26,961 bases of DNA. Origin: a virus (Duplodnaviria; Caudoviricetes). Location: positions 1-26,961 of the IMG/VR virus record IMGVR_UViG_3300038379_000623. One strand, written 5' to 3'. Below are positions 2,651 to 18,381 of the stretch, in pieces (position 1 is the stretch's first letter; each line of letters starts with the position of its first letter). The notes beneath the pieces are model-generated. The model made no database searches and was not told the DNA's origin. It saw only the letters and a program-made list of their open reading frames with translations. A program made the position numbers and the translations under genes.

Positions 2651-2693
2651 CCACCGAACAACCAACCCCAACACAGCCCCGAAGGAGGCTCCC

Positions 2694-3455
2694 ATGTCAA
2701 CGACACCCCTCACCCTGTCCGCCGCAGCCCTCACGCAGCCCTACAAGGGCTCCTGCTGGGATTTAGCTCTCGAAGTCTTGCCACACACCCAACGCACCCT
2801 CCTCTACGGCGCCCCCGGCACCGGCAAGACTTACGCCGCCCAACACATCCACCACGACGCCGCCACCCCCATCTACTCCGTCACCCTCGACGAAGACACC
2901 CCGGCCTCCGAACTACGCGGCCACTTCATCCCCGCCAAAGGCGGCTTCAAGTGGCACGACGGCCCCGCCATCCGCGCATGGCGTGAGGGCGCCCGCCTCA
3001 TCCTGAACGAGATCAACCGCGCCTCCGATTCCGTGCGCACCCTCCTTTACGCCATCCTCGACGACACCGAGAGCGCCCAATACACCTTACCTACGGGCGA
3101 GACCCTCCGTCCTGCCCCGGGCTTCGCTGTCGTCGCCACCATGAATGGCACCCCCGACGAACTCCCCAATGGCCTGCTCGACCGCTTCACCTTCTGCCAC
3201 GAAATCACCACAGTCCACCCGGACGCCCTGCTGCGCCTCCCCGTGGAATTCCGCGCCCTCGCGCAGGAAAGCACCTCCCCATCGAAAGGCTCCAAGCGCC
3301 TCAGCATCCGCGCTTGGCTGTACTTCTGCACCCTGTTGGCCTCCGGTCTGACCCCCGACAGCGCAGGCACGGCAGCCTTCGGCTCTAACTGGAAGGAACT
3401 CGCAGCAGCCCTCGCCATACAAATCGCCCCCCAGGTAAGCGAGCCAACAGCCTGA
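2694..3455 (+). CDS. MoxR/CbbQ/CobS-like AAA+ ATPase
   Basis: RBS AAGGAGG and ATG 2694; Walker A GAPGTGKT; WHDGPAIRAW; Walker B variant LILNEINRA; sensor ATMN; Arg finger LLDRF. Confidence 0.9.
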   Translation: MSTTPLTLSAAALTQPYKGSCWDLALEVLPHTQRTLLYGAPGTGKTYAAQHIHHDAATPIYSVTLDEDTPASELRGHFIPAKGGFKWHDGPAIRAWREGARLILNEINRASDSVRTLLYAILDDTESAQYTLPTGETLRPAPGFAVVATMNGTPDELPNGLLDRFTFCHEITTVHPDALLRLPVEFRALAQESTSPSKGSKRLSIRAWLYFCTLLASGLTPDSAGTAAFGSNWKELAAALAIQIAPQVSEPTA

Positions 3456-4138: not shown

Positions 4139-4155
4139 GCAACGTGGAGACCCCC

Positions 4156-6021
4156 ATGACCACTATCTATCCAGCATCCGCCGAAACCGTCCGCAGCCAC
4201 CCCAGCAAGCTGCCAAAGAGCACCTCCAGTCGCCGTGCCCGTGCACACCTCCCCAAGCTCTCTCACTGGACGGTCCACCCCACGACTGCCCTGGCCAGCG
4301 CACACGTCGATCTGAATGCCCGCACTATCTACATCCCCATGCGAGGTGGGGCCTGCGCGCGTCACACCGCTTTCCATGAAATCGGCCACATCCTGTACTC
4401 CCCCATGAAACCCTGCCCCGATTTCCACACCCCCACGCAGCTCCGCCTCTACCGCTACATCGAAGACGTGCGCGTCAATACCCTGCTGACCCGCCACATC
4501 CACCTTCCCATCTCAACCTTCGACCCATCCTCCCCGGAAGACGCCCAGGAGCGGCTCCGCCTCAGCGCACGTGCTCCCACCTCCGGCGTCGCGCGCATCC
4601 TCATGGCCCTGCTCACCGTGGACACCCCCTACCACGGCACCGTTTCACTCCCTGCCCATGAGCAACAACTCGTCGACAACACCATCGCATCGCTGTGGCG
4701 CAACGGCCCTCCGTCGCACGCAGACGCCATCCGTGTCACCCACGAACTACTGGCATCTTCCCCCTCATGGCAGCCATCCCCCATTCCCCAGCAACCAGCC
4801 CCATCCGAAGGCCAGGGCCTGCCCATGTTCTCCGACATCGCCACTCCCTCGAAGGCACTGGCAAAGGAAGCGGGGGTACCGGCAATGGGAGAAGCCCCGG
4901 AAGCGTCTGCCACCGGAGGGCAATCCACGCCGCAGGAACTACAACAGCCTACGCCCGGCCCGGAACCCCTGCTGCAAGAAGCCCTCGACCGGGTGCTCGC
5001 CGCTGGAATCTCCACAGGCAGCGAGAACAGCCTTAATCAGTCCTTCTTCGGGAGCAAGGTCCGGTATGACCAGAAAAAAGCCATCTCCGCCGAGGAAGCA
5101 CGCTGGCTCCCCATGAACATCCTCCAGCCACGCCTGAGCCAACCGGCAAGCGGCTCCAGGAGACTACGATCCTCTCCCCGCTGGGTAGGAGGTTATGAAG
5201 AAGGCACCATCCTCCGCAGCCTGCATCGCTACGCCTCCGATGGCGCCATCTTCGCGCGCCGCCGCAAAAGCGCCCCTGCCCTGACCGTACTGGTGGACTG
5301 GAGCGGTTCAATGCACCTATCCCCTGGGAATATGGCCCGCCTCGCAGCCCTGACCAGATTCAGCCGCGTCACCCTCGCCTACTATTCATCAGGCCGCACC
5401 GTATATTCATCAGGCCACACCATATCGTCGGGATCTCAACAAGAGGGTGCCCTCGTCGTCGTCGCCGACCACGGCAGAATGCTCCCCACCGGACAATGGG
5501 CGATCTACAGAGCGGGAGGGAACAACGGCTGCGACGGCCCTGCCCTCCAATGGTTGAATCGGCACACCGGCCTCAAGGTATGGGTCAGCGACGGCGGCAT
5601 CACAGGACGTGCGGGTACCTCCCAGAGAGCTCTCCTGCGCGAGTGCTACAAGCACTGTCAGCAAGGACAGATCGTACAGGTCCCTACAGTAGAGTTACTC
5701 CTGCGCCTGCTGACCTCCGACGACGGTCCCGATCTGGTCGAAGCCCTGCTCACCCACCGCGCTTCCATCGCCGAACTCCACTGGGCAACCCCCGTCTACT
5801 ACAACGGCACCCCGCTCCTGCCACTGACCAGTCCCGCCACATGGCAGCCGGAAAGCAACGAGAGACTCAAGGCAATGCGAGAGGCCCGCATCGACTCCGA
5901 CGGCTGCATCGTGGTCTTCGCCGCAGGCTTCTACACTCTCCTCTCAGGTGCAGCAGCGGGAGTCGTCCTTCCCGCTCCCTGGGAACGGACTTTCCTGAAA
6001 GTCCTGTCGAGATGCTCATGA
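4156..6021 (+). CDS. HExxH metallopeptidase-like + vWA (MIDAS) protein, CobT-like partner of the AAA+ ATPase
   Basis: AFHEIGHILYS...YIEDVRVN; low-complexity P/Q/S linker; VLVDWSGSM (DxSxS); GGNNGCDGPAL; WVSDG. GGAG precedes ATG 4156. Confidence 0.85.
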   Translation: MTTIYPASAETVRSHPSKLPKSTSSRRARAHLPKLSHWTVHPTTALASAHVDLNARTIYIPMRGGACARHTAFHEIGHILYSPMKPCPDFHTPTQLRLYRYIEDVRVNTLLTRHIHLPISTFDPSSPEDAQERLRLSARAPTSGVARILMALLTVDTPYHGTVSLPAHEQQLVDNTIASLWRNGPPSHADAIRVTHELLASSPSWQPSPIPQQPAPSEGQGLPMFSDIATPSKALAKEAGVPAMGEAPEASATGGQSTPQELQQPTPGPEPLLQEALDRVLAAGISTGSENSLNQSFFGSKVRYDQKKAISAEEARWLPMNILQPRLSQPASGSRRLRSSPRWVGGYEEGTILRSLHRYASDGAIFARRRKSAPALTVLVDWSGSMHLSPGNMARLAALTRFSRVTLAYYSSGRTVYSSGHTISSGSQQEGALVVVADHGRMLPTGQWAIYRAGGNNGCDGPALQWLNRHTGLKVWVSDGGITGRAGTSQRALLRECYKHCQQGQIVQVPTVELLLRLLTSDDGPDLVEALLTHRASIAELHWATPVYYNGTPLLPLTSPATWQPESNERLKAMREARIDSDGCIVVFAAGFYTLLSGAAAGVVLPAPWERTFLKVLSRCS

Positions 6022-6323
6022 AGCCATTGCCCTTCAACCTGCACGGCCTCTTGGTCCTGCAAGCCGTCTCTCCGGAGTCGATCTTCTACAAGGATCGCCG
6101 TCTCCTGGAGTCGGAACTGTGCCGGATCGTCAGTCGGCGCTGCCTTGCCTGCCGGGGCGGTTATGCCGCCTCGCTTCAGATGCTCACCGGCCCATACGCA
6201 GGCAAGGTCCTCCACATGATCGGTGTCTCCCTCGCCGACTACGACCCTTCGACTCCGGCGCCACGGAAACCCCCAAACGCCGGCAAACCCGAAGCGCAAG
6301 GCACCGCGCAAACCAACCTGTAA
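6018..6323 (+). CDS. Hypothetical protein
   Basis: ATGA overlap with the vWA stop; MKPLPFNLHGLLVLQ... is the 3' part of track ORF 5496..6323. Confidence 0.6.
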   Translation: MKPLPFNLHGLLVLQAVSPESIFYKDRRLLESELCRIVSRRCLACRGGYAASLQMLTGPYAGKVLHMIGVSLADYDPSTPAPRKPPNAGKPEAQGTAQTNL

Positions 6324-6335
6324 AGGAGAAAAGCC

Positions 6336-6674
6336 ATGAACGACAGCACACAGCAATTGATCCGCGAACTGGCCGAAAAGCTCGGCACTACAGCAGAGCA
6401 CTTATGGGGCGTCCTGGTCAGGCAAGCACCGATAAGCGGAACCCTCGGACTGCTCGGTATCGCGGCACTCCTGGGGTTCGTATACATTGCCTGGAAACGA
6501 CTGACGAAAATCGACTTTACCAAATGGGACCACGATCTTGCCAAGGGTACAATGTATGGCGGGTTGTTAATCGCAACAGTAATTGCCCTTCTCAGTCTTC
6601 TTTTGTTAGCTCCCTTATACGTCGCCGGGATACTCAACCCGGAATACTGGGCACTCAGGCAAATCCTGAAATGA
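6336..6674 (+). CDS. Phage membrane protein (two TM segments)
   Basis: RBS AAAGGAG; LAEKLGTTAEHLWGVLVRQA, two hydrophobic helices, C-terminal LNPEYWAL. Confidence 0.8.
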   Translation: MNDSTQQLIRELAEKLGTTAEHLWGVLVRQAPISGTLGLLGIAALLGFVYIAWKRLTKIDFTKWDHDLAKGTMYGGLLIATVIALLSLLLLAPLYVAGILNPEYWALRQILK

Positions 6675-6682
6675 GGCGTGTT

Positions 6683-6705
6683 ACCGAACGAACGCCGTGT
6701 TATAC
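6683..6705 (-). repeat. Truncated attC-like site 1
   Basis: ACCGAAC-GAACGCCGT-GTTATAC. GTTATACGGCAC (6699-6710) is complementary to GTGACGTATAAC (6900-6911), 11/12. Confidence 0.55.
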
Positions 6706-6720
6706 GGCACTGGAGGCAAA

Positions 6721-6903
6721 ATGGTCATGAAGAAGATGTTTGTTGCAGCACCGAACTACCTAATTGCTTTTGCAATGTGCATGGCGCTGACGGTGATGGC
6801 GGCGCTGACCAAAAACCCGGAATGGTACTGGCTGTTGGTGAGCGACATGAACGTGGCGATATGGCTGTTGGTTGCATACTGGCTCGACCCGCTCAGGAAG
6901 TGA
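6721..6903 (+). CDS. Cassette ORF: small membrane protein
   Basis: RBS GGAGG; two hydrophobic segments; bounded by sites 1 and 2. Confidence 0.7.
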   Translation: MVMKKMFVAAPNYLIAFAMCMALTVMAALTKNPEWYWLLVSDMNVAIWLLVAYWLDPLRK

Positions 6904-6904
6904 C

Positions 6905-6951
6905 GTATAACGCTGCGGCGTAGCCGGTCGGCCTCGAACTGCTTGCTATGG
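6905..6951 (-). repeat. attC-like site 2 (internally deleted relative of site 9)
   Basis: GTATAAC GCTGCGGCGTAGCCGGTCGGCCTCGAACTGCTT GCTATGG; matches site 9 minus 12 nt. Confidence 0.75.
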
Positions 6952-6965
6952 CACAGGAGGAAAGA

Positions 6966-7199
6966 ATGAAGATTTTTCGGGTAGTGACAGAACGGGATGG
7001 AGCAACCACCAAAGTGCCGGGAGAGCATACGACTGAGATTGTGCGTGAAGAACTGCGCTATGCAGCCGATACCATGCAAGAAGTCTGGGACGAGATCGCA
7101 TGGATACGCAACGACCCGGAAAAGACTTTGCTGGCTGTGCATGAGGAGGCGCCGGCAGTTACGGTTCTGGGGCATAGCGCAAAGTCGGGCCAAGCATAA
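6966..7199 (+). CDS. Cassette ORF: hypothetical protein
   Basis: RBS AGGAGG; MKIFRVVTERDG...; the TAA stop lies in the GCATAAC core of site 3. Confidence 0.75.
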   Translation: MKIFRVVTERDGATTKVPGEHTTEIVREELRYAADTMQEVWDEIAWIRNDPEKTLLAVHEEAPAVTVLGHSAKSGQA

Positions 7200-7255
7200 C
7201 GCCGTGTCGAGCGGCGCGCCGAATAGGCGCATCCGGGTTGAAGCGGTTGTTAGAT
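7194..7255 (-). repeat. attC-like site 3 (62 bp)
   Basis: GCATAAC...GTTAGAT imperfect hairpin. GTTAGATTGC is complementary to GCAATCCAAC (7640-7649), 9/10. Confidence 0.8.
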
Positions 7256-7271
7256 TGCAATTGGAGGGACG

Positions 7272-7751
7272 ATGGTAAAGAGAACCGAAAGAGGGTGGCC
7301 CGGGCATTTTACTTGCGCCGACTGGTGCTTGTTCAGAAGGAACACGCTCCTGGACTTTGGCAGGAGGAAAATAATCGTGAGCACGGTTGGGAGGATGCGC
7401 GATGCCAGGAACGGAGGCGCTTACGCCCCCGTTTGCGCAAGCGGAAGGTACTACGAAACGATGGCATTTTATGCCAAGAGAAACGGACCGTATTGGGATG
7501 CCGATGTTACCAGGCAGATCGGCTTTGAAAGCGAATGGGAAATTTGCGCAGATTCGGTAAAAAAATTACCGAAGGATGCCGACAACAAAGCGAACGATAT
7601 GCACGAGGCGGTTGTGGCAGAGCTTATTGAACGATTCGGGCAATCCAACGCCGTGTTGAGCGGCGCGCCTGACGACAACAACGAGGTGCCGGGAAGCGGC
7701 ACACCGCCTCACCGCGTCCGGCCGAAAACAAAACAGAGGTACACGACATGA
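7272..7751 (+). CDS. Cassette ORF: phage hypothetical protein (RGWPGHF...CLFRRNTLL), C-terminus read through site 4
   Basis: RBS GGAGG; the tail SNAVLSGAP... is encoded by the attC-like sequence. Confidence 0.8.
   Translation: MVKRTERGWPGHFTCADWCLFRRNTLLDFGRRKIIVSTVGRMRDARNGGAYAPVCASGRYYETMAFYAKRNGPYWDADVTRQIGFESEWEICADSVKKLPKDADNKANDMHEAVVAELIERFGQSNAVLSGAPDDNNEVPGSGTPPHRVRPKTKQRYTT
7643..7744 (-). repeat. attC-like site 4 (long, degenerate)
   Basis: ATCCAAC GCCGTGTTGAGCGGCGCGCC is nearly identical to the left arm of site 3; the right end is CGCGTCCGGCCGAAAAC...GGTACAC. Confidence 0.65.
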
Positions 7752-7793
7752 CCCTGACATTCTATTCCGTGAGTCTCAGGGCATGGAGGAAAC

Positions 7794-7997
7794 ATGGCTC
7801 AATGTAAAACATGCAGATTTTTCGAATTTATCGATTCCAATCCGGAGTCGTACGGAATATGTAGATGGTTCGATCATCACACACTTCCAGGGCCAATATG
7901 GTTTCATCGGGAACTGCGGGATACGGTATCCATTGGCAGCGGTGCTCTACACCCGGAACAGGAGTTATGCCTCGCGCACCGGGACAAAGCCGTATAA
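7794..7997 (+). CDS. Cassette ORF: small Cys-containing protein (CxxC...C...C)
   Basis: RBS GGAGG; MAQCKTCRFF...GICRW...LC; the stop falls in the core-like GCCGTATAAT. Confidence 0.7.
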   Translation: MAQCKTCRFFEFIDSNPESYGICRWFDHHTLPGPIWFHRELRDTVSIGSGALHPEQELCLAHRDKAV

Positions 7998-8019
7998 TGC
8001 AAAGTCGGTAAGGTGGAAT

Positions 8020-8265
8020 ATGGAAAAAATACTGGCAAACATCGAAATGGCTGTCTCTAACGGCGTCAAACGGGCAAATAGGCGCGAGTTTGAGATTGGC
8101 GACCTTGTGGAACGAAGCGGACAACCTGATTGTATTTTTGAAGTAGTTGGGTGCATTCACGATACAGAAAGACTATTTGTTATCGACCGTACTGGACGAT
8201 TCGCCAAGGGGAAGGAATTTGAAATGTGTTTTGCCGAAGTATCCAGGCAATTTCGTGCCGTATAA
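8020..8265 (+). CDS. Cassette ORF: hypothetical protein (FEIGDLV, possibly SH3/KOW-like)
   Basis: AAGGTGG before ATG 8020; 3' half of track ORF 7783..8265; the stop is in the GTATAAC core of site 5. Confidence 0.65.
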   Translation: MEKILANIEMAVSNGVKRANRREFEIGDLVERSGQPDCIFEVVGCIHDTERLFVIDRTGRFAKGKEFEMCFAEVSRQFRAV

Positions 8266-8338
8266 CGAAACGATGGAGGTAACGCGCGCCATGACCAAGC
8301 ATGCAAACGATGCAACGCCATTAAGCGATTTGTCAGAT
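8260..8338 (-). repeat. attC-like site 5 (degenerate; contains RBS and start of the next ORF)
   Basis: GTATAAC...GGAGGT...ATG(8291)...GTCAGAT. GTCAGATTG (8332-8340) is exactly complementary to CAATCTGAC (8471-8479). Confidence 0.6.
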
Positions 8339-8503
8339 TGTCCTGTGTGCGATGGATACGGCGGCATTCGGTTTCAGCGGTGTTGCGGTCGTGATCGCAA
8401 CGGCGAATGCTGCGGAGACCCGAAAATCGATGTCGAACAATGCCACGCTTGCGGCGGCAGCGGACAAGTGCAATCTGACGATGGAGCTAAGCAGCATGAG
8501 TGA
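8291..8503 (+). CDS. Cassette ORF: DnaJ-type zinc-finger mini-protein
   Basis: CPVCDGYG and CHACGGSG (CxxCxGxG twice) plus two CCG; RBS GGAGGT. Confidence 0.8.
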   Translation: MTKHANDATPLSDLSDCPVCDGYGGIRFQRCCGRDRNGECCGDPKIDVEQCHACGGSGQVQSDDGAKQHE

Positions 8504-8544
8504 AGCGCAGCGTAACGAATGTCCTCTTGAGCGGGTTGTTAGCC
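8473..8544 (-). repeat. attC-like site 6 (contains start of the MTase-like ORF)
   Basis: ATCTGAC...GCTAAG...CTTGAGC...GTTAGCC. GTTAGCCCCGTTT is complementary to AAATGGGGCTAAC (9096-9108), 12/13. Confidence 0.75.
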
Positions 8545-9107
8545 CCGTTTTGGTGGGCTGCGAGGAAAGCCAGGTTGTTTGCAAGGCGTTTCGGGATGCC
8601 GGACATGAAGCCTACTCTTGCGACTTGCAGCCGACACGCGGAAATCCCGATTGGCACTTTCAGCAGGACATTATGGAAGTGATACCGATCCGGCGATGGG
8701 GGCTGATAATTCTGCACCCGGATTGCACGGCGCTGGCAGTAAGCGGGAATCGCTGGTATGGACGCGGGATGCCGAGACACAGCGAGAGAGAGAGAGCAAT
8801 CAAGTGGACTCTGGATTTGTGGGAGCTGGCAAAAATGCACAGTGACAGGGTGGCACTGGAAAACCCGGTGAGTGTGATATTTACGCACTTACCGAATGTG
8901 TTTTACACACAGCCGTATGACCACGGGCACGGAGAAACGAAAAAGACCGGCTTTGCACTGCATAATCTGGAGCCGCTGGAACCGACGAACAAGGTTGAAG
9001 GCCGGGAACAGCGGATATGGAAAATGCCACCTTCGGCCACGCGGAAACGCGACAGGAGCGAGACGTTTCCCGGGATTGCTGCCGCGATGGTGAGGAAATG
9101 GGGCTAA
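8496..9107 (+). CDS. Cassette ORF: short phage C5-cytosine DNA methyltransferase-like protein
   Basis: VLVGCEESQVV...AYSCDL (SAM-binding region), HPDCT (motif IV-like), LENP (motif VI), RSETFPGIAAAMV.KWG; GGAG before ATG 8496. Confidence 0.75.
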   Translation: MSEAQRNECPLERVVSPVLVGCEESQVVCKAFRDAGHEAYSCDLQPTRGNPDWHFQQDIMEVIPIRRWGLIILHPDCTALAVSGNRWYGRGMPRHSERERAIKWTLDLWELAKMHSDRVALENPVSVIFTHLPNVFYTQPYDHGHGETKKTGFALHNLEPLEPTNKVEGREQRIWKMPPSATRKRDRSETFPGIAAAMVRKWG

Positions 9108-9182
9108 CGCTCCGCATGAGCGGCAGACGAAGGAGGAATGAAATGACGACTGAGACTGTCCGACTTGATGCGCTTGTTATGC
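9102..9182 (-). repeat. attC-like site 7 (RBS and ATG in its loop)
   Basis: GGCTAAC GCTCCGCATGAGCGGCAG-[ACGAAGGAGGAATGAAATGACGACTGAGA]-CTGTCCGACTTGATGCGCTT GTTATGC. Unit ends GTTATGCGCC / GACGCATAAC pair 9/10. Confidence 0.85.
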
Positions 9183-9460
9183 GCCTTCGTGCGGCTGCGG
9201 CTAACAAGGCGCTGGATATTGGCACGGCGTGGAAGTTATTGGATGAATCAGCCGATGTAATTGAAAAGATTTTTAACGGCCTAGATTGCGAAACTGAGTG
9301 CCCTTGCTGCCAAGAAAACACAGAGTGCCTCGAAGGCTGTACGTTCTCAACTGATTCATACGATGGGTATGGGCGGATGCAATTCTTTCGCGAACTGCTG
9401 ACGCATAACGGCGTTTTCAGTGGCACGCCGTCAGGCGGGTCCGCCGGAAAACAGGGTTAG
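9143..9460 (+). CDS. Cassette ORF: Cys-rich hypothetical protein
   Basis: RBS AGGAGG; CETECPCC...CLEGC; starts in site 7 and stops at the TAG within GTTAG of site 8. Confidence 0.75.
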   Translation: MTTETVRLDALVMRLRAAAANKALDIGTAWKLLDESADVIEKIFNGLDCETECPCCQENTECLEGCTFSTDSYDGYGRMQFFRELLTHNGVFSGTPSGGSAGKQG

Positions 9461-9462
9461 GT
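9403..9462 (-). repeat. attC-like site 8 (60 bp)
   Basis: GCATAAC GGC GTTTTCAGTGG...CCGCCGGAAAAC AGG GTTAGGT. Unit ends GTTAGGTTGC / GCAACCTAAC pair 10/10. Confidence 0.85.
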
Positions 9463-9478
9463 TGCGATTGGAGGGCAC

Positions 9479-9709
9479 ATGAATTTTGTACAGGTAACAG
9501 ACCGGCTACCACAAGCCAAGGAAACTGTATTGGTTCGCGGATGGGGCGAAGGCAAGAAACACTACATTTATGGATTCGCCTGCATTGAACCATTGCGTAG
9601 CGGTGGCTGGCGTTGGTGGTCGCATGACCATGGTGAGGAGCTGTGGTTCGAGCCGATTGCATGGACTGAGCTTGAGCAACCTAACGCTGCGGTTGAGCCG
9701 CCGGCGTAG
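9479..9709 (+). CDS. Cassette ORF: DUF551-like protein
   Basis: FVQVTDRLP...VLV...W...PIAWTEL pattern; RBS GGAGG. Confidence 0.7.
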   Translation: MNFVQVTDRLPQAKETVLVRGWGEGKKHYIYGFACIEPLRSGGWRWWSHDHGEELWFEPIAWTELEQPNAAVEPPA

Positions 9710-9737
9710 CCGGTCCGCCTCGAACCGCTTGTTATGC
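9679..9737 (-). repeat. attC-like site 9 (59 bp, best conserved)
   Basis: Minus strand: GCATAAC AAGCG GTTCGAGG CGGACCGGCTACGCCGGCGG CTCAACC GCAGC GTTAGGT, i.e. R''-spacer-L''(extra C)...L'-spacer-R'. Unit ends GTTATGCCTCAA / TTGAGGCATAAC pair 12/12. Confidence 0.9.
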
Positions 9738-9756
9738 CTCAATGTTGGAGGACAAA

Positions 9757-10029
9757 ATGAAAGCAACAGAATACTGCGATGTATTGAACCTGGAAATGCG
9801 GTTGACGTACTACCCAAACCAGGGTGGCCGGTGGACCGCATTTTTTGAAAATTGCGAACTGAAGGAAACACCGGATTCCGGTGTTCTTTGCGGTGCGTAT
9901 GGAAATGGGGCCTCTCCGGCATTGGCGATTGCCGATTACGTGAACAGGATTCGCGGCAAGACGTTGGTTGTCGATGCGATGAGCCCACAGCGCCGTGTTT
10001 ACATGGTGCCTGAATCGCTTGAGGCATAA
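9757..10029 (+). CDS. Cassette ORF: hypothetical protein (YGNGASPALAIADY)
   Basis: RBS GGAGG; the TAA stop lies in the GCATAAC core of site 10. Confidence 0.8.
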   Translation: MKATEYCDVLNLEMRLTYYPNQGGRWTAFFENCELKETPDSGVLCGAYGNGASPALAIADYVNRIRGKTLVVDAMSPQRRVYMVPESLEA

Positions 10030-10076
10030 CGTTGGAGTTAACGCGACCTTCGGTCGCGTTCGACGACGAGTTGGAT
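10024..10076 (-). repeat. attC-like site 10 (53 bp)
   Basis: GCATAAC...AACGCGAC-CTTCG-GTCGCGTT...GTTGGAT. Unit ends GTTGGATTT / AAATCTAAC pair 8/9. Confidence 0.8.
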
Positions 10077-10091
10077 TTGGAGAATTGCGAT

Positions 10092-10325
10092 ATGCACAAA
10101 ACAGATAGTCACACCCCCGATGGCAAGCGCGGCGAGGTATTCGCTGCTTCCATGCTACGCGACATTCTTCTCGCTGGCGATAATTTGCGCGGATATGGGC
10201 AAGAGGCACCTTGGGAAACGGTTGCGCATTACGTCATAAACCTTGAGCGACGAGTGTGCGAATTGGAAGATATGCTGAAATCTAACGGCCCGCTAACCGG
10301 CGAGCCGGAAGGCGAGTCCGGTTGA
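10092..10325 (+). CDS. Cassette ORF: hypothetical protein
   Basis: GGAG before ATG 10092; the tail SNGPLTGEPEGESG is encoded by site 11. Confidence 0.7.
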   Translation: MHKTDSHTPDGKRGEVFAASMLRDILLAGDNLRGYGQEAPWETVAHYVINLERRVCELEDMLKSNGPLTGEPEGESG

Positions 10326-10339
10326 GCGGAGAGTTATAC
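10280..10339 (-). repeat. attC-like site 11 (60 bp)
   Basis: ATCTAAC GGC CCGCTAACCGG...CCGGTTGAGCGG AGA GTTATAC; the stem has a single extrahelical G in the right arm on +. Confidence 0.9.
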
Positions 10340-10349
10340 GGAGGTATGT

Positions 10350-10613
10350 ATGGCAAGCAGCTTTGCTCCTTGGTGGAAAAGGCTTTTGTTTAAGACGCCA
10401 CTCTACAAGCGCGGACCATGCCAAAACTACCATTTGAGAACCGACAAGTTTTGTTTCTGCCGTGTTAACGAGCACTGCGGAGATTGGAATGGCGGTATCT
10501 ACAGTTTCGAGACAGGGCAAGAATTGTTCCTCGATACTTCACGACCGCGGGCCACGAAAGACCGGAAGTGCGCCGACCTGTCCCGGTCGGCTCGATTAAA
10601 TTGTGGGGCGTAA
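10350..10613 (+). CDS. Cassette ORF: hypothetical protein
   Basis: RBS GGAGGT directly after site 11. Confidence 0.65.
   Translation: MASSFAPWWKRLLFKTPLYKRGPCQNYHLRTDKFCFCRVNEHCGDWNGGIYSFETGQELFLDTSRPRATKDRKCADLSRSARLNCGA
10583..10609 (-). repeat. Degenerate right half of attC-like site 12
   Basis: CCGGTCGGCTCGATTAAATT GTGGGGC resembles CCGGTCGGCCTCGAACTGCTT GCTATGG of site 2. Confidence 0.4.
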
Positions 10614-10624
10614 ACGGAGGCACT

Positions 10625-10762
10625 ATGACTGAAGGCGATATTTTCCAGATTCTTTGGCTTTTGGGTGGACTTGCACTTCCGTTCTTCCCGATTGCCGCAC
10701 TGGTTTATTTATTACTGCTTGTTGCGGCATTGTTTGTACCAGCGTCATGGTTTGGTTTATGA
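10625..10762 (+). CDS. Small membrane protein (45 aa)
   Basis: RBS GGAGG; MTEGDIFQILWLLGGLALPFFPIAALVYLLLLVAALF..., almost entirely hydrophobic. Confidence 0.7.
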   Translation: MTEGDIFQILWLLGGLALPFFPIAALVYLLLLVAALFVPASWFGL

Positions 10763-10835
10763 CGCCTGACAAGGAATAGACCGCCCAACTGCGGTAATAC
10801 AACGCCGCAATCGCCCACAATACAGGAGAACCGGA

Positions 10836-10994
10836 ATGAAACATCCCGTCTCGCTGTTCCGATCCGCACTGGTGCTGGCGCTGCTCGCTGTACTGCTCGA
10901 CGGCGCCGGCTGCCGCGCTCACGTACAGCCGCGCAGTGCTGGCGTAGTCTACGCCACGGGCGGCGTCTGCGATCCGTGCGGTGCCGTGCAATGA
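10836..10994 (+). CDS. Small secreted/membrane peptide (52 aa)
   Basis: Below the track cutoff. RBS AGGAG; MKHPVSLFRSALVLALLAVLLDGAGC...; ATGA overlap with the next gene. Confidence 0.55.
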   Translation: MKHPVSLFRSALVLALLAVLLDGAGCRAHVQPRSAGVVYATGGVCDPCGAVQ

Positions 10995-11221
10995 AAGCGC
11001 ATCATGCGTTGGGCATCGGCCTTATTTGCATCGGCATCGTGGTCGCGGTCGGTGTGTATACCCTGCCGCCGTATCTCAGGGCGCATGCAGACGCCGAGGC
11101 ACGATTCGCGCTGCTACGGGAGCAGGATGCCGTAATGCAGGCGATGGCCGAAACCATCGCCGAGTGCAATGCCGCGCTCAGGAAGGCCGGCGTAACCTTC
11201 AACCACCGACAGGAGGACTGA
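10991..11221 (+). CDS. Hypothetical protein with N-terminal TM and helical tail
   Basis: MKAHHALGIGLICIGIVVAVGVY...; coupled start. Confidence 0.7.
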   Translation: MKAHHALGIGLICIGIVVAVGVYTLPPYLRAHADAEARFALLREQDAVMQAMAETIAECNAALRKAGVTFNHRQED

Positions 11222-11223
11222 CC

Positions 11224-11460
11224 ATGTATGACAGTAGAGAGAAAGAGCAGAGCAGTGAGACGATGCGAATCCCTGCGGACGAACTTGCCAAGGTACGGGG
11301 GGAGGCGATCAACGAGTTTCTGCTTCTTCTGAGCCTTGGCTATCGCCCGATAGCAGCGTTCGAGCGCGTCACGGGGAGGCCGGGCACGGAAGCGATGCGC
11401 GCCCTCGAGCACGTGGCCATTGGCAAGTCGTTGAATTGCGAGGACAGTTTCAAATCTTGA
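11224..11460 (+). CDS. Hypothetical protein
   Basis: RBS AGGAGG; MYDSREKEQ... Confidence 0.7.
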   Translation: MYDSREKEQSSETMRIPADELAKVRGEAINEFLLLLSLGYRPIAAFERVTGRPGTEAMRALEHVAIGKSLNCEDSFKS

Positions 11461-11485
11461 CACACGCGCGAATAGCTGAGAACAT
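11457..11485 (+). promoter_or_regulatory. Possible sigma70-type promoter for the recombination/replication operon
   Basis: TTGACA, a 17-nt spacer containing CACGCGCG, then a weak -10 GAACAT, at an intergenic gap. Confidence 0.35.
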
Positions 11486-11548
11486 TGCATGCGCAGCGGC
11501 ACTCGCCTCCTGCGCGATTTGAATTCAACCCGGAAAGGAGATCGATCC

Positions 11549-11815
11549 ATGGCAAAGAGAAACGGCACCCGCACTACCGTCGGCCCTGTGCAGTCGGGCA
11601 TTCCACTACCGTCGAGAATGGCAGGAGTGCGTGGCACTTCCAAGTACCCCCTGCGCATGCTGCGCGTCGGGCAATCCTTTGAGGTGTCCGGAAAGACTGC
11701 ACCCGCCAGACTTCGGGGGACGATCTCGAATCTCTTGCAGGTGCACCCGGAGTTCAAGGGCCGGTTTGCCACCCGCAAGACCGAACAGGGCGTGCGGGTA
11801 TGGCGCGTCAAGTGA
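11549..11815 (+). CDS. Small basic putative DNA-binding phage protein (GIPLP...KYP...VGxSF...GVRVWR type)
   Basis: RBS AAAGGAG; characteristic motif series. Confidence 0.8.
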   Translation: MAKRNGTRTTVGPVQSGIPLPSRMAGVRGTSKYPLRMLRVGQSFEVSGKTAPARLRGTISNLLQVHPEFKGRFATRKTEQGVRVWRVK

Positions 11816-11823
11816 GCCCTGCC

Positions 11824-12009
11824 ATGAGTGAAGACACATTGATGCAGGCTGTCCTGAACCTGAACGATCTGCGGCGCTCCGTGCTGGAGGGGAAGGAAGT
11901 TTCAGCTACAGAGTACGCCCGTCTGATAGAGGAGCTGCGCGCCGCCCGGGAGGCAGCCCCGAAAAGAAAACGTCCCGGCAAGGCAAAGAACGATGCCGAC
12001 CCCGCGTAA
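11824..12009 (+). CDS. Hypothetical protein
   Basis: Fills the operon gap; helical with a basic tail. Confidence 0.65.
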   Translation: MSEDTLMQAVLNLNDLRRSVLEGKEVSATEYARLIEELRAAREAAPKRKRPGKAKNDADPA

Positions 12010-14969: not shown

Positions 14970-15392
14970 ATGCCCCGGATCGAAAAAACCCGATTTCGCA
15001 CTGCGCCTCCCCTTGAGTTCTCTGTGGCTCCTCTCCCGGTGCGCGTGCGCATCTGGCGGCGCCTGCGCAGCCTGAATCTGGATGTGATGTTGTACTACGG
15101 GCTTGCCTGTGTCGTCCTGCTTTTGGGGATATTGCTGCTGGCGGGCTGTGCCAGCACACCCTTTGCGGAAATCGGAATTGGAGGAGTCCGACAACCGCTG
15201 ACGCACGCGACGGCTTCTCCGGTGGTGATGCAGGTTGAGCTGGGAACGCAATGGCGCTCGGGATTCGGCTTCAAGTACAACCATACCAGTTCCGTCGATG
15301 GGCCTCCCGTGAACAGTCGCAGGGACGACCGCTGGACCGAGTACGGCGGGATGTACTGGCGCATGTCATTCGACAAGGCTCATCCCAAATGA
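14970..15392 (+). CDS. Putative lipoprotein / outer-membrane beta protein
   Basis: RBS AAGGAG; hydrophobic segment ending in lipobox LAGC; alternating beta-strand-like segments, YNHTSS and terminal YWRMSF. An alternative start is at 15087. Confidence 0.65.
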   Translation: MPRIEKTRFRTAPPLEFSVAPLPVRVRIWRRLRSLNLDVMLYYGLACVVLLLGILLLAGCASTPFAEIGIGGVRQPLTHATASPVVMQVELGTQWRSGFGFKYNHTSSVDGPPVNSRRDDRWTEYGGMYWRMSFDKAHPK

Positions 15393-15441
15393 TACGCCTT
15401 ATCGCGGACCGAGTACGGCGGGATGTACTGGCGCATGTCAT
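15334..15441 (+). repeat. Exact 36-bp direct repeat separated by 36 bp
   Basis: GGACCGAGTACGGCGGGATGTACTGGCGCATGTCAT at 15334-15369 and 15406-15441. Confidence 0.95.
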
Positions 15442-15787: not shown

Positions 15788-16027
15788 ATGGCAGACGTGA
15801 TCGATCTGAAGGTTGTCTCTGAAGATAACCATCACTGGGGAATAGAGGAAATGTTGCAGGATGCCCTGCGGGACTTCTCCGGCATAAGGCAGGGCCGGGC
15901 GCTCCTGATCGTTGAGGGTCCGGAGAAACACCATTATCAGGTGAAGCGGGTGCGCCTGGATTTGGCGCAGACACTCCTGTTGCTGCGCGTTGTCGAGCGT
16001 GGATTTCTCCGGGAGAGTGGACTGTGA
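15788..16027 (+). CDS. Hypothetical protein
   Basis: GGAG before ATG 15788; MADVIDLKVV...; GTGA overlap with the polymerase. Confidence 0.75.
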   Translation: MADVIDLKVVSEDNHHWGIEEMLQDALRDFSGIRQGRALLIVEGPEKHHYQVKRVRLDLAQTLLLLRVVERGFLRESGL

Positions 16028-18381
16028 CGGGGAGAAAAGTCCGCTCCAGCGGGCCGGTGGACGCCGACACCATGATCGTGGGGGAGGCTCCCGGCGCGGA
16101 GGAGGAACGCCGGGGTGAGCCCTTTGTCGGACTCTCGGGGCAGGAGTTGTCCCGGATGCTCCAGGAGGCAGGGATTCATCGGGCCTTCTGCCGCATCGTG
16201 AATGTCTGCCCGTATCGCCCGCCGGGAAATGACATTGACGGGTTCTTTCTGAACAAGACGGCGGCGCGGAAAGCCGGCGTCCCTTGCGTACAGGGACGAT
16301 ATCCTGCGGCACCTGTTGTGGAAGGCTTGCAGGAATTGCGGCGTGAGATTCTGACGACGCGCCCAAAGCGGATTCTCCTGTTGGGAGGGACTGCCCTGTG
16401 GGCTGTCCTGGGGTTGGAAGGTATTGCGCATTGGCGTGGCTCCGAGCTGACGGGGACGCTGGATGGCGTCTCCTTCCGGGTCGTTCCTACGTGGCACCCG
16501 GCGGCGGTGCTGCGCTCGTGGGAGTTGCGCTACATTGCCGTGCGGGATATGCGCCGCCTTGTCTCCCCGGGGACGCCCCCGGTAGACGACTTCCGGATAG
16601 CGCCTGCGAAACAGGAAGTGCTCGATACGCTCAGTCGCTTGCAGGGATATGCAGGGGACATCGCAGTTGATCTGGAGACGCACCCCGCAAGCAAGCACAT
16701 CACCTGCTGTGGGCTGGCATGGGAGGAGAGTGGTGAAACCCGTGCGTTGTGCATCCCGTTCACGACAGGAGCAACGATGCAGCCGTACTGGAGGAGTGCG
16801 GCGGAGGAAGCCGGGATTCTTTTGGCGCTCCGGCGCTGCCTGCAATCGGAGGTGCCGCGCTTTGCAGGGCATAATTACCTGTTCGATATGCAGATGATGG
16901 CGCGCTGGTGGGGATTCCTTCCCCGTCTGCACATGGACACAATGCTCACGCATCATGTCGTGCTGCCTGGATTGCTGAAATCGCTGGACTTCTGCGCTTC
17001 CTTGTATCTGCCCTACTACCGGCAATGGTCGCTGACTGAAGCGGACTGGAAGCTCGGTGTCCCGGACGAGACGTTGTGGACATACAACTGCCGTGACGTG
17101 CAGGTGACGCTGGCTCTGGTGGCGAAGCTGCGCGAAGCCGTGCACAAGGAGAAACTGGAGGAGCAGGTCAGGCAGCAACATGCTCTCCTTCCGATGGTGC
17201 TGGAAATGTCGCTGCGAGGCATGCGACTGGACGTGCAACGCCTTCCCGAGGTACGGCAGCAACTCCAGGAGGCGATGAGGAAAACGCAGGAGTTTCTGGA
17301 TACCAGCGTGGGGCATCCACTCAATCCACGATCTGCGGTGCAACTGAAGCGGCTGTTCTACGCAGACTTGCAGGTGAAGCCCCGGCTCAAACGGGGAAGC
17401 TCCTCTGTGACATGCGACAAGACTGCGCTGCGGGAGATCGGACAAAGCCATCCCCTGCTGCGACCTTTGACGAATGCCATCCTGGATTACCGTTCCCTCG
17501 GCGTTCTGAAATCCACGTTCGTGGATGCCCAATACGACCCGGACGGTCGGGCACGGACGTCATTCAATATGGCGCGTGTGCACACCTTTCGCCTGTCGTC
17601 GAGCGAGAGCATCTTCGGGACCGGGATCAACATGCAGAACGTCCCCAAGCCGGACAAGGGCAAGGCTGTTGGAGTGAATCTCAGGGAGTTGTTCCTGTTC
17701 GACGGCATCGGGCTGGAGTGCGATCTGGATCGGGCCGACTTGCAGGTGGTGGTTTGGGAAGCCGACGATGCGGAGCTGAAGCACCTGCTGCGCAGTGGCG
17801 CCGATCTGCACATGGAGAATGCCAGGACTATTTTCGGGGCGGCAGCGACGGCGCGGCACCGGGAGCTGGCAAAAGCCGGCGTGCACCTGACGAACTACGG
17901 GGGGCGGCCTCCGGTGCTGGCCGCGACCCTGGGAATCACACGGGCGGAAGCGGAGAAATTCCAGGCGCGCTGGTTCGCGGCACACCCCGGAATAAAGCGC
18001 TGGCATCGCCGGGTGGAGATGGAGTTGGCGACGACGCGAGCGACACGGAACGCCTTTGGATATCGCCGTCACTGGTTCGACCGGCTCGACGCCATTCTGC
18101 CGGAGGCGCTGGCGTGGGGTCCCCAAAGCACTGTCGCTCTCGTCATCAATCAGGGTATCTTGCAGTTAAAGACCGCGCTGCCCCAGGTCCAGTTGTTGAT
18201 GCAGATACATGACAGTGTGGTGTTTCAGCTCCCCCCGGACACCGATCTGCCCGGCACGCTGCCTGCGGTGAAGGCGGCCTTGCGTGTCCCTGTCCCCTAT
18301 CCCGATCCCTTGATTATCCCGGCGTCGGCCAGGATATCGACAACGACATGGGCGGCCTGTACGCCCGTTCCCAACTGGTGA
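16024..18381 (+). CDS. polA: Family A DNA polymerase with N-terminal uracil-DNA glycosylase (family 4-like) domain and 3'-5' exonuclease
   Basis: UDG motifs IVGEAPG.EE...G.PFVG.SG, RPPGN and PTWHPAAVLR; Exo I DLET, Exo II HNYLFD, Exo III YNCRD; TFRLSSS, NMQN; motif A DLDRADLQVV, motif B RELAKAGVHLTNYG, motif C QIHDS. Confidence 0.95.
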   Translation: MTGRKVRSSGPVDADTMIVGEAPGAEEERRGEPFVGLSGQELSRMLQEAGIHRAFCRIVNVCPYRPPGNDIDGFFLNKTAARKAGVPCVQGRYPAAPVVEGLQELRREILTTRPKRILLLGGTALWAVLGLEGIAHWRGSELTGTLDGVSFRVVPTWHPAAVLRSWELRYIAVRDMRRLVSPGTPPVDDFRIAPAKQEVLDTLSRLQGYAGDIAVDLETHPASKHITCCGLAWEESGETRALCIPFTTGATMQPYWRSAAEEAGILLALRRCLQSEVPRFAGHNYLFDMQMMARWWGFLPRLHMDTMLTHHVVLPGLLKSLDFCASLYLPYYRQWSLTEADWKLGVPDETLWTYNCRDVQVTLALVAKLREAVHKEKLEEQVRQQHALLPMVLEMSLRGMRLDVQRLPEVRQQLQEAMRKTQEFLDTSVGHPLNPRSAVQLKRLFYADLQVKPRLKRGSSSVTCDKTALREIGQSHPLLRPLTNAILDYRSLGVLKSTFVDAQYDPDGRARTSFNMARVHTFRLSSSESIFGTGINMQNVPKPDKGKAVGVNLRELFLFDGIGLECDLDRADLQVVVWEADDAELKHLLRSGADLHMENARTIFGAAATARHRELAKAGVHLTNYGGRPPVLAATLGITRAEAEKFQARWFAAHPGIKRWHRRVEMELATTRATRNAFGYRRHWFDRLDAILPEALAWGPQSTVALVINQGILQLKTALPQVQLLMQIHDSVVFQLPPDTDLPGTLPAVKAALRVPVPYPDPLIIPASARISTTTWAACTPVPNW

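Follow-up and report, generated by a model that had tools for sequence, protein, structure and literature searches.

The stretch of DNA analysed here (hereafter the window) is a virus record of 26,961 bases, about 60% complete, which codes for a DNA polymerase, a primase, a Sak4-like annealing protein and a PD-(D/E)XK nuclease. From position ~6700 to 10600 it carries an array, i.e., a lower-GC run of small plus-strand genes, with imperfect palindromes between them that start near TAAC and finish near GTTA. With at least seven full attC-type sites within 4 kb and no adjoining intI, the array corresponds to a phage CALIN. It does not amount to a complete integron (intI, attI, Pc promoter), as the contig gave no intI match and positions 6200-11600 no promoter match, a plus-strand sigma-70-like promoter having been sought there. 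An Rfam scan of positions 6000-12000 matched no family, and Pfam returned 0 matches for the 11 array proteins submitted. Among public sequencing runs, the stretch was present in one DNA run labelled freshwater metagenome, which may be its source; no RNA run containing it was listed, and the contigs of that one DNA run yielded no usable cassette-skipping joint. Elsewhere in the window, a MoxR-like AAA_5 ATPase (2664-3455) and then a protein of 625 aa that matches a PHROG family weakly (4144-6021) lie upstream of the array. A 34-nt inverted repeat (1491-1524 and 2300-2333, 775 nt apart, 88% complementary) sits near a switch of GC skew and gene direction, and an exact 36-nt direct repeat at 15334-15441 (copies 72 nt apart) has duplicated a gene end. 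The N-terminal part of the DNA polymerase (16024-18381) may, judging by its motif, resemble the start of a family 4 uracil-DNA glycosylase.

The sites of the array all lie on the minus strand, which would be the attC top strand, and the genes on the plus strand. Site 0 (6685..6705) is a lone right arm; its core and the left core of site 1 (6905..6951) are perfectly complementary, site 1 itself being an internally deleted relative of site 9. Site 2 (7194..7255) is short, and in the eroded site 3 (7643..7669) only the left arm was recognised, which shares 22 of 23 nt with that of site 2. Site 5 (8260..8338), a weak inverted attC-type site, is followed by ORF5 (8291..8503, 70 aa), a 16-aa site-encoded leader joined to a domain with a CxxCxGxG motif, which has no library match and is probably zinc-finger-like. 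Site 6 (8473..8544), also of inverted attC type, precedes ORF6 (8496..9107, 203 aa), in which a 16-aa leader is joined to a C5-cytosine DNA methyltransferase-like domain; the ORF6 stop codon, TAA, lies inside the left core of the inverted attC-type site 7 (9102..9182). ORF7 (9143..9460, 105 aa) consists of a 13-aa leader and an unknown domain, with site 8 translated as its C-terminal tail. Sites 8 (9403..9462), 9 (9679..9737), 10 (10024..10076) and 11 (10280..10339) are short. The six shorter sites examined (1, 2 and 8-11; 47-62 nt) are each followed by a gene with a separate Shine-Dalgarno sequence (SD) and ATG past the core, at 6966, 7272, 9479, 9757, 10092 and 10350, respectively. Several genes read into or through the next site instead of stopping in its left core (7646-7751, 9403-9460, 9682-9709 and 10283-10325), thereby gaining site-encoded C-terminal tails; homologues of ORF7 carry different tails after the same core.

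A sequence-only reading of this DNA had proposed that sites 5, 6 and 7 double as translation-initiation modules, and the ATGs that it placed inside them (8291, 8496 and 9143), as well as the three leaders that it quoted, were reproduced here. Its placement of the ribosome-binding site (RBS) in the variable centre held for site 7 only, where a strong SD (AAGGAGG, 9130-9136) lies in the loop of the predicted fold, 6 nt ahead of the ATG, which the loop also contains. In the other two sites the SD overlaps the left arm: GGAGG (8275-8279) at a spacing of 11 nt in site 5, and a weak GGAG (8483-8486) at a spacing of 9 nt in site 6. Its description of the cores as GTT was likewise right apart from the right core of site 5 (GTCAGAT) and the left core of site 6 (ATCTGAC). 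These two sequences (8332-8338 and 8473-8479) are the two ends of cassette 5, both GTC/GAC rather than GTT/AAC, and the matched non-canonical core supplies a TGA.

We compared the predicted anti-SD pairing of all in-frame starts, and found the in-site ones to be the best, at -10.6 (8291), -5.6 (8496) and -11.3 kcal/mol (9143). The starts in or just past the right cores gave +0.3 (GTG 8345), -3.6 (TTG 8550), -2.7 (GTG 8553) and +0.4 (ATG 9179, a second in-frame ATG included in the site 7 right core GTTATGC and lacking an SD), and further in-frame ATGs upstream (8273, 8481 and 9116) have poorer SDs. All four ORF7 homologues carry a leader, and one of them (P0123) does so without a Met at the core. 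In line with the earlier proposal, then, the site probably provides both start signal and leader, there being no comparable start past cores 5-7. The domain proper also begins after the core, as had been claimed: the structural model of the methyltransferase places the beginning of the first strand two residues past the core, at residue 18, and gives residues 1-10 a mean pLDDT of 54. The three longer sites thus hold the predicted RBS, the start codon and a leader of 13-17 residues of the gene that follows. The end of the leader is fixed by the right arm, where a single DNA motif read in two frames gives L[ED]xxV[SRM] or LS[ED]xL[GS]. Two methyltransferase homologues (P0007 and P0010) share the beginning of their leader and end in different right-arm frames, which suggests that a third frame is usable if the core is free of stops.

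The orientation of the sites can be deduced from several of their features. Inverted cores of the form RYYYAAC ... GTTRRRY stand 47-150 nt apart, as in attC, with the GTC/GAC variants noted above. When the minus strand is taken as the top strand, the L box forms 5-7 of 7 Watson-Crick pairs in sites 6, 7, 9 and 10, as opposed to 2-4 when the plus strand is so taken; site 6, for example, shows a 5-nt spacer, an unpaired C at AAC+9 and 6 of 7 L-box pairs on the minus strand. Sites 8 and 11 fit the same orientation with variant spacing, and with the spacing held fixed neither orientation suits sites 2 and 5; site 5 also scores at noise level in the site profile and is recognised mainly by core complementarity. 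In 8 of the 9 sites, G is enriched on the plus strand. Bottom strands of attC are described as purine-rich and better-folding (PMC5027507), and the window's coding strand is laid out like the bottom strands published for attC aadA7 and phage TJE1 (PMC9892861, Table S3). Judged by these sequence features, the window sites are attC-type sites of integrons that lie backwards, the coding strand being the attC bottom strand. The textbook cassette layout, a top-strand gene that starts outside the site and carries it at the 3' end, is not the one found in the window.

Core complementarity leads to the cassettes themselves. The right core matches the left core of the next site at 7 of 7 positions for the site pairs 5-6, 6-7, 7-8, 8-9 and 9-10, compared with 4-5 of 7 within those sites. 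Complementarity across the cassette extends to sites 0 and 1, and the GTC/GAC variants of sites 5 and 6 covary. As each right core is the complement of the next left core, these cassettes have the matching ends that a circular cassette requires.

To place the window among related sites, we surveyed viral contigs and bacterial genomes. A first scan, using a pattern built from the window's own site family and relying on site geometry alone, was run on both strands and took in 126 of about 130 viral stretches and 136 of about 1900 stretches from bacterial genomes. The coding strand was called by a codon model, which was correct for 51 of 56 window genes, some of them in its training set, and which leaves about 40-45% of flanks without a strand call; it was used instead of a classifier by ORF length, which proved too noisy. 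Among the viral sites (n=110), the left flank was inverted in 44, canonical in 10, without a call in 50 and missing in 6, and the right flank was inverted in 58, canonical in 5, without a call in 44 and missing in 3. The bacterial genome sites (n=158, among the matches listed) gave 24 inverted, 66 canonical, 60 without a call and 8 missing on the left, and 14, 77, 61 and 6, respectively, on the right. By these codon-model calls, sites of this family mostly have the inverted layout in viral contigs and only exceptionally have it in bacterial genomes. An early geometric detector was rejected, as it gave 23 hits in 118 kb of shuffled sequence (the profile that replaced it gave 0 in 193 kb), and a relaxed version of the profile was discarded for its spurious hits.

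With a two-arm profile, we collected 264 viral and, among the matches listed, 307 genome sites. The cores matched across the cassette at 4 of 4 positions in 104 of 140 viral cassettes, a set that may include copies of the window, versus 49 within sites (permutation p<=2e-4), and cross-cassette complementarity was found in 130 of 166 genome cassettes among the matches listed. An in-site SD with an ATG whose frame stays open for 30 codons or more beyond the core was present in 40 of 224 viral sites (~18%, window copies left out), as compared with 4 of 227 for the opposite strand and, among the matches listed, 5 of 275 sites in genomes. Sites with an in-site start were longer (median 96 vs 72 nt) and less often had a separate downstream start (12/42 vs 110/185 in the others, p=5e-4), i.e., the two kinds of start tend toward mutual exclusion; here and above, the p-values overstate independence, since the leader sites are related to each other. 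The surveyed leaders ended in L[ED]xxV[SRM] (15), LS[ED]xL[GS] (26) or otherwise (1). By these counts, the in-site start layout is more than chance and is widespread in one attC family of phages. In one viral contig (L117:1497-3146), five cassettes that are almost identical are arranged in tandem at intervals of 316 nt.

The methyltransferase allowed leaders to be followed across a gene family. ORF6 matches phrog_757 (E 5e-49), and its fold matches HhaI, HaeIII and DNMT structures; a PDB sequence search with the methyltransferase alignment gave no match. Of 120 close homologues, 118 contained the anchor motif and were retained. A leader ending in the site signature was present in 26, another longer end in 28, and a start no more than 9 residues from the anchor in 64, a number not to be read as that of non-cassette genes, as the short forms at the protein level may include cassettes called from a core ATG. 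At the DNA level, a site adjoins the start of the methyltransferase gene in 5 of 77 loci, one of them a copy of this phage. Two further loci (L005 and L007) keep the SD, ATG and leader ahead of the methyltransferase, with a site so degenerate that it was not detected. A leader shared with non-cassette homologues, which would have spoken against site-encoded leaders, was not seen, and loci without a site begin straight at the domain. At least 12 different leaders precede this one methyltransferase domain, and the leader-bearing proteins are not one clade (27 leader rows, including that of the window, against 22 of 55 short rows; p-AU 4.6e-5), so that leaders must have been gained, swapped or lost several times; the tree itself, which is unrooted and weakly supported, implies 11 changes. 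In five AT-rich loci (L049, L052, L054, L056 and L061), what seem to be right arms of a different, longer attC family lie upstream of the methyltransferase, and in L056 an in-frame leader passes through such an arm. For the neighbouring genes homologues were scarce: in viral contigs the ORF7 search returned only a copy of this phage, and for ORF5 one search gave no candidate and another nothing beyond this phage's own copy and 8 short matches to CxxC, so that no real homologue is on hand.

Comparing loci that share one flank revealed where exchange takes place. When viral loci shared the upstream flank and differed downstream, the site had changed in 8 of 9 independent groups and was kept in one, and when they shared the downstream flank (14 groups), 6 groups retained the site, 6 had different ones and 2 were mixed. 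Among 14 pairs with a common upstream flank, 12 ceased to be identical 1-4 nt past AAC. In three loci (L003, L004 and L006), the same site and leader remain on the methyltransferase, and the neighbours differ beyond AAC on both sides. Since the neighbour changes at AAC, the usual unit is the site, its gene and the stop codon; and since the sites are inverted, the usual crossover falls at the left core, which assigns the site to the cassette of the downstream gene. The geometry implied by the sequence-only reading, in which the start signal comes from the preceding cassette, is thus mainly wrong. Its picture of exchange at the right core does apply to a minority of events: right-core junctions are sharp, with 0-3 identical nt inside the core in pairs of different sites, and in one case a locus with the order site A, gene X, site B, gene Y (L123) has a counterpart in which site A is joined straight onto gene Y, in frame (L193). 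As read from these junctions, exchange is mostly at the left AA|C, just past the upstream stop, and occurs also at the GTT core, where it swaps leaders in frame. Changes at the right core are as common as retention in the groups sharing a downstream flank (6 vs 6), which is above what strict bottom-strand selectivity predicts.

Which recombinase acts on these sites was approached through the contig and its relatives. No match to PF00589, the tyrosine recombinase family, was found in the contig, and because only about 60% of the genome is present, a phage-encoded recombinase is possible. Of five related records, one carried tyrosine recombinases and the complete one carried none; among five others, a complete genome included, the IntI cut-off was reached by 0/5. 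IntI1 is reported to have recombined five of six phage attC sites tested, bottom strands better than top strands (PMC9892861). We infer that a host IntI is the likely actor.

The folding of sites 5-7 was compared with that of shuffled sequences. In place, the z-scores as DNA were +1.05 for site 5, +2.19 for site 6 and a marginal -0.08 for site 7; in the computed circular form they were modest (-0.66, +0.74 and -1.49, respectively). Site 11 reached -2.8, sites 8 and 9 reached -3.5 in the circular form, and site 9 folded better on the opposite strand. Across 40 leader sites, the coding strand was the better-folding one in 39. Given their weak folds and the GTC/GAC cores of sites 5 and 6, sites 5-7 may be decaying or rarely used now. 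As RNA, in place, the three sites scored +1.12, +0.52 and -1.69. The suggestion that an mRNA hairpin regulates initiation found no support in this comparison: the RNA of sites 5 and 6 folds no better than shuffles, and across the 40 leader sites pairing of the SD and AUG is somewhat lower than the average for the site, only slightly so for the SD (0.50 vs 0.41).

The alternative suggestion, coupling to translation of the upstream gene, fits site 6, where the ORF5 stop (8501-8503) overlaps the ORF6 start, and fails at sites 5 and 7, where the preceding gene already ends within the left core and leaves 25 and 35 nt, respectively, to the ATG. More widely, 38 of 40 internal ATGs have an out-of-frame stop in the interval -8..+5, versus 66 of 100 ordinary starts, the leader sites in this count being non-independent, and this sequence pattern gives a hint of built-in coupling. 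A related contrast with non-functional ATGs (30/40 vs 37/126) was dropped, as its control ignores second-codon bias.

Taken together, these results lead us to propose, with a probability of roughly 0.7, that the window contains an inverted attC cassette array in which a host integrase likely moves the site, the gene and the stop codon as one self-starting module. During phage replication, the coding strand would fold as single-stranded DNA, and host IntI would cut it at the A|C just past the upstream stop, excising or inserting the unit. Since the site then lies 5' of the gene, any SD and ATG that arose in the variable part would be inherited with that gene, whose own start could then be lost. 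A rarer crossover at the GTT core would fuse the site in frame to another gene, by which a leader may be swapped or first installed. The leader itself would be a tolerated and mostly unstructured by-product, and the ATGA-type overlap may catch ribosomes from upstream genes that read into the site.

Other accounts of the array deserve consideration. The sites could be fossils, i.e., attC sequences that came in through integron activity and now serve mainly as start or boundary sequence, the present turnover of genes being the work of the phage's own Sak4-like protein acting on the short homology of the arms. Sak4-like annealing proteins recombine short diverged homologies, and the window codes for one, together with a PD-(D/E)XK nuclease. 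This account would also suit sites 5 and 6, which fold no better than shuffles, sites 0, 1 and 3, which are half sites or deleted, the use of both arms as exchange points, and the two loci whose SD, ATG and leader have outlived a detectable site. We nevertheless consider it unlikely, because the stretch of identity past AAC is too short for homology-driven exchange, and because decay would erase the core complementarity that is kept both in the viral survey and in five consecutive cassettes here; the unpaired C and the spacer lengths are kept as well.

The geometry of the sequence-only reading, in which canonical sites recombine at the right GTT and the site of an upstream cassette lends its start to a captured gene, would in turn explain the sharp right-core junctions, the one clean in-frame leader swap, the variety of leaders on a single methyltransferase domain and the one group of nine that keeps its site with the upstream flank. 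It is very unlikely all the same, seeing that the unpaired base, the spacer lengths, the purine skew and the folding bias mark the coding strand as the bottom strand, that the site changes in the other eight groups, and that the three methyltransferase loci keep the whole site while the sequence 5' of AAC differs. Finally, the in-site ATGs might be incidental products of gene calling, the true starts lying at or after the right core. A public gene caller does start ORF7 at the core ATG 9179 (P0121, 93 aa), the site 6 SD is weak and the spacing in site 5 is long. Against this stand the lack of a comparable SD past cores 5-7, the leader-bearing homologue without a core Met, the tendency of internal and downstream starts to exclude each other, and the fact that an SD and ATG read on through the core in 40 of 49 viral cases, compared with 5 of 20 in genomes (among the matches listed) and 4 of 11 on the opposite strand; we regard such an artefact as scarcely credible.

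An inverted cassette array of this kind has both likenesses to and differences from known systems. Our literature search, which included few subscription papers, returned phage attC clusters and no description of bottom-strand genes with in-attC starts in phages. The phage CALINs of PMC9892861 are alike in that attC sites of the same direction lie between small accessory genes, including DNA methyltransferases, with no integrase; we saw no mention of bottom-strand genes or in-site starts there. Of the phages it reports, TJE1 has an array that is canonical by our profile (the degenerate pattern had no match there, and the sites were placed by reading and profile), so that inversion is not universal in phages. 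MW202573, its Myoviridae example, is inverted in the 6 kb examined, a feature on which we saw no remark in the article; at least four sites in it (L357:2069-3738) have the bottom-like strand on the annotated gene strand. With canonical attC, as described in PMC5027507 and PMC8946536, the window's sites share the R and L boxes, the 5-nt spacer, the unpaired base, the variable terminal structure, the purine-rich and better-folding bottom strand and the cassette-specific core complementarity. Canonical cassettes in those accounts have the gene on the top strand, attC at the 3' end and the start outside the site, whereas in the window the gene is on the bottom strand and the site is at the 5' end and translated.

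Participation of att sites in translation has precedents in class 1 integrons: attC is reported to contain small ORFs that enhance the cassette behind it (Jacquier 2009, cited in PMC11511950), the gcuF1-blaOXA-28 fusion is read through attC (PMC3375312), and attI1 reportedly holds an initiation element (Hanau-Bercot 2002). There too, an att site has a part in translating the gene behind it and can itself be read as peptide. As described, those cases involve separate small ORFs or read-through from the upstream cassette in canonical orientation, whereas in the window the only good start lies in the site, and that site belongs with the gene in one cassette. As to how attC could enter a phage, IntI is reported to insert attC cassettes at loose GWT sites (attG) in genomes (bioRxiv 10.1101/2022.09.11.507474). 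This offers a possible route to stop codons, as TAA|C is GTT on the other strand; top-strand attC insertion was at background level in that study, and the installation of leaders here would need the other core. The 'reverse' integrons of Treponema (PMC4909258, PMC8352920) also depart from the textbook orientation. In these it is reportedly the integrase gene that is flipped relative to the array, and the stops lie in the usual attC box. In the window it is the genes that are flipped relative to attC, and an integrase was not found.

A broader proposal, which we offer tentatively and regard as possible rather than probable, is that phages are the workshop in which host integron integrases turn ordinary genes into cassettes. 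A backward attC would land at a stop codon, fusion through its second core would join it to the 5' end of a phage gene, and the SD, ATG and leader of the site would replace the gene's own start and make of it a mobile cassette that drives its own expression, repeatedly and independently within one and the same gene family. The origin of integron cassettes from genes is a long-standing open question. If true, this proposal would provide a visible and testable route by which cassettes arise, and a site-specific engine that drives phage mosaicism and shuffles N- and C-terminal peptides. One phage gene family with and without attC, with scattered leader forms and junctions defined to the base, makes the birth and loss of cassettes testable. 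Our findings further suggest that in arrays like this one gene callers and attC finders misplace starts and the limits of cassettes, that a second code, for translation, can be borne by a recombination site, and that many phages borrow the host integrase to shuffle accessory genes, with no need of an attI platform.
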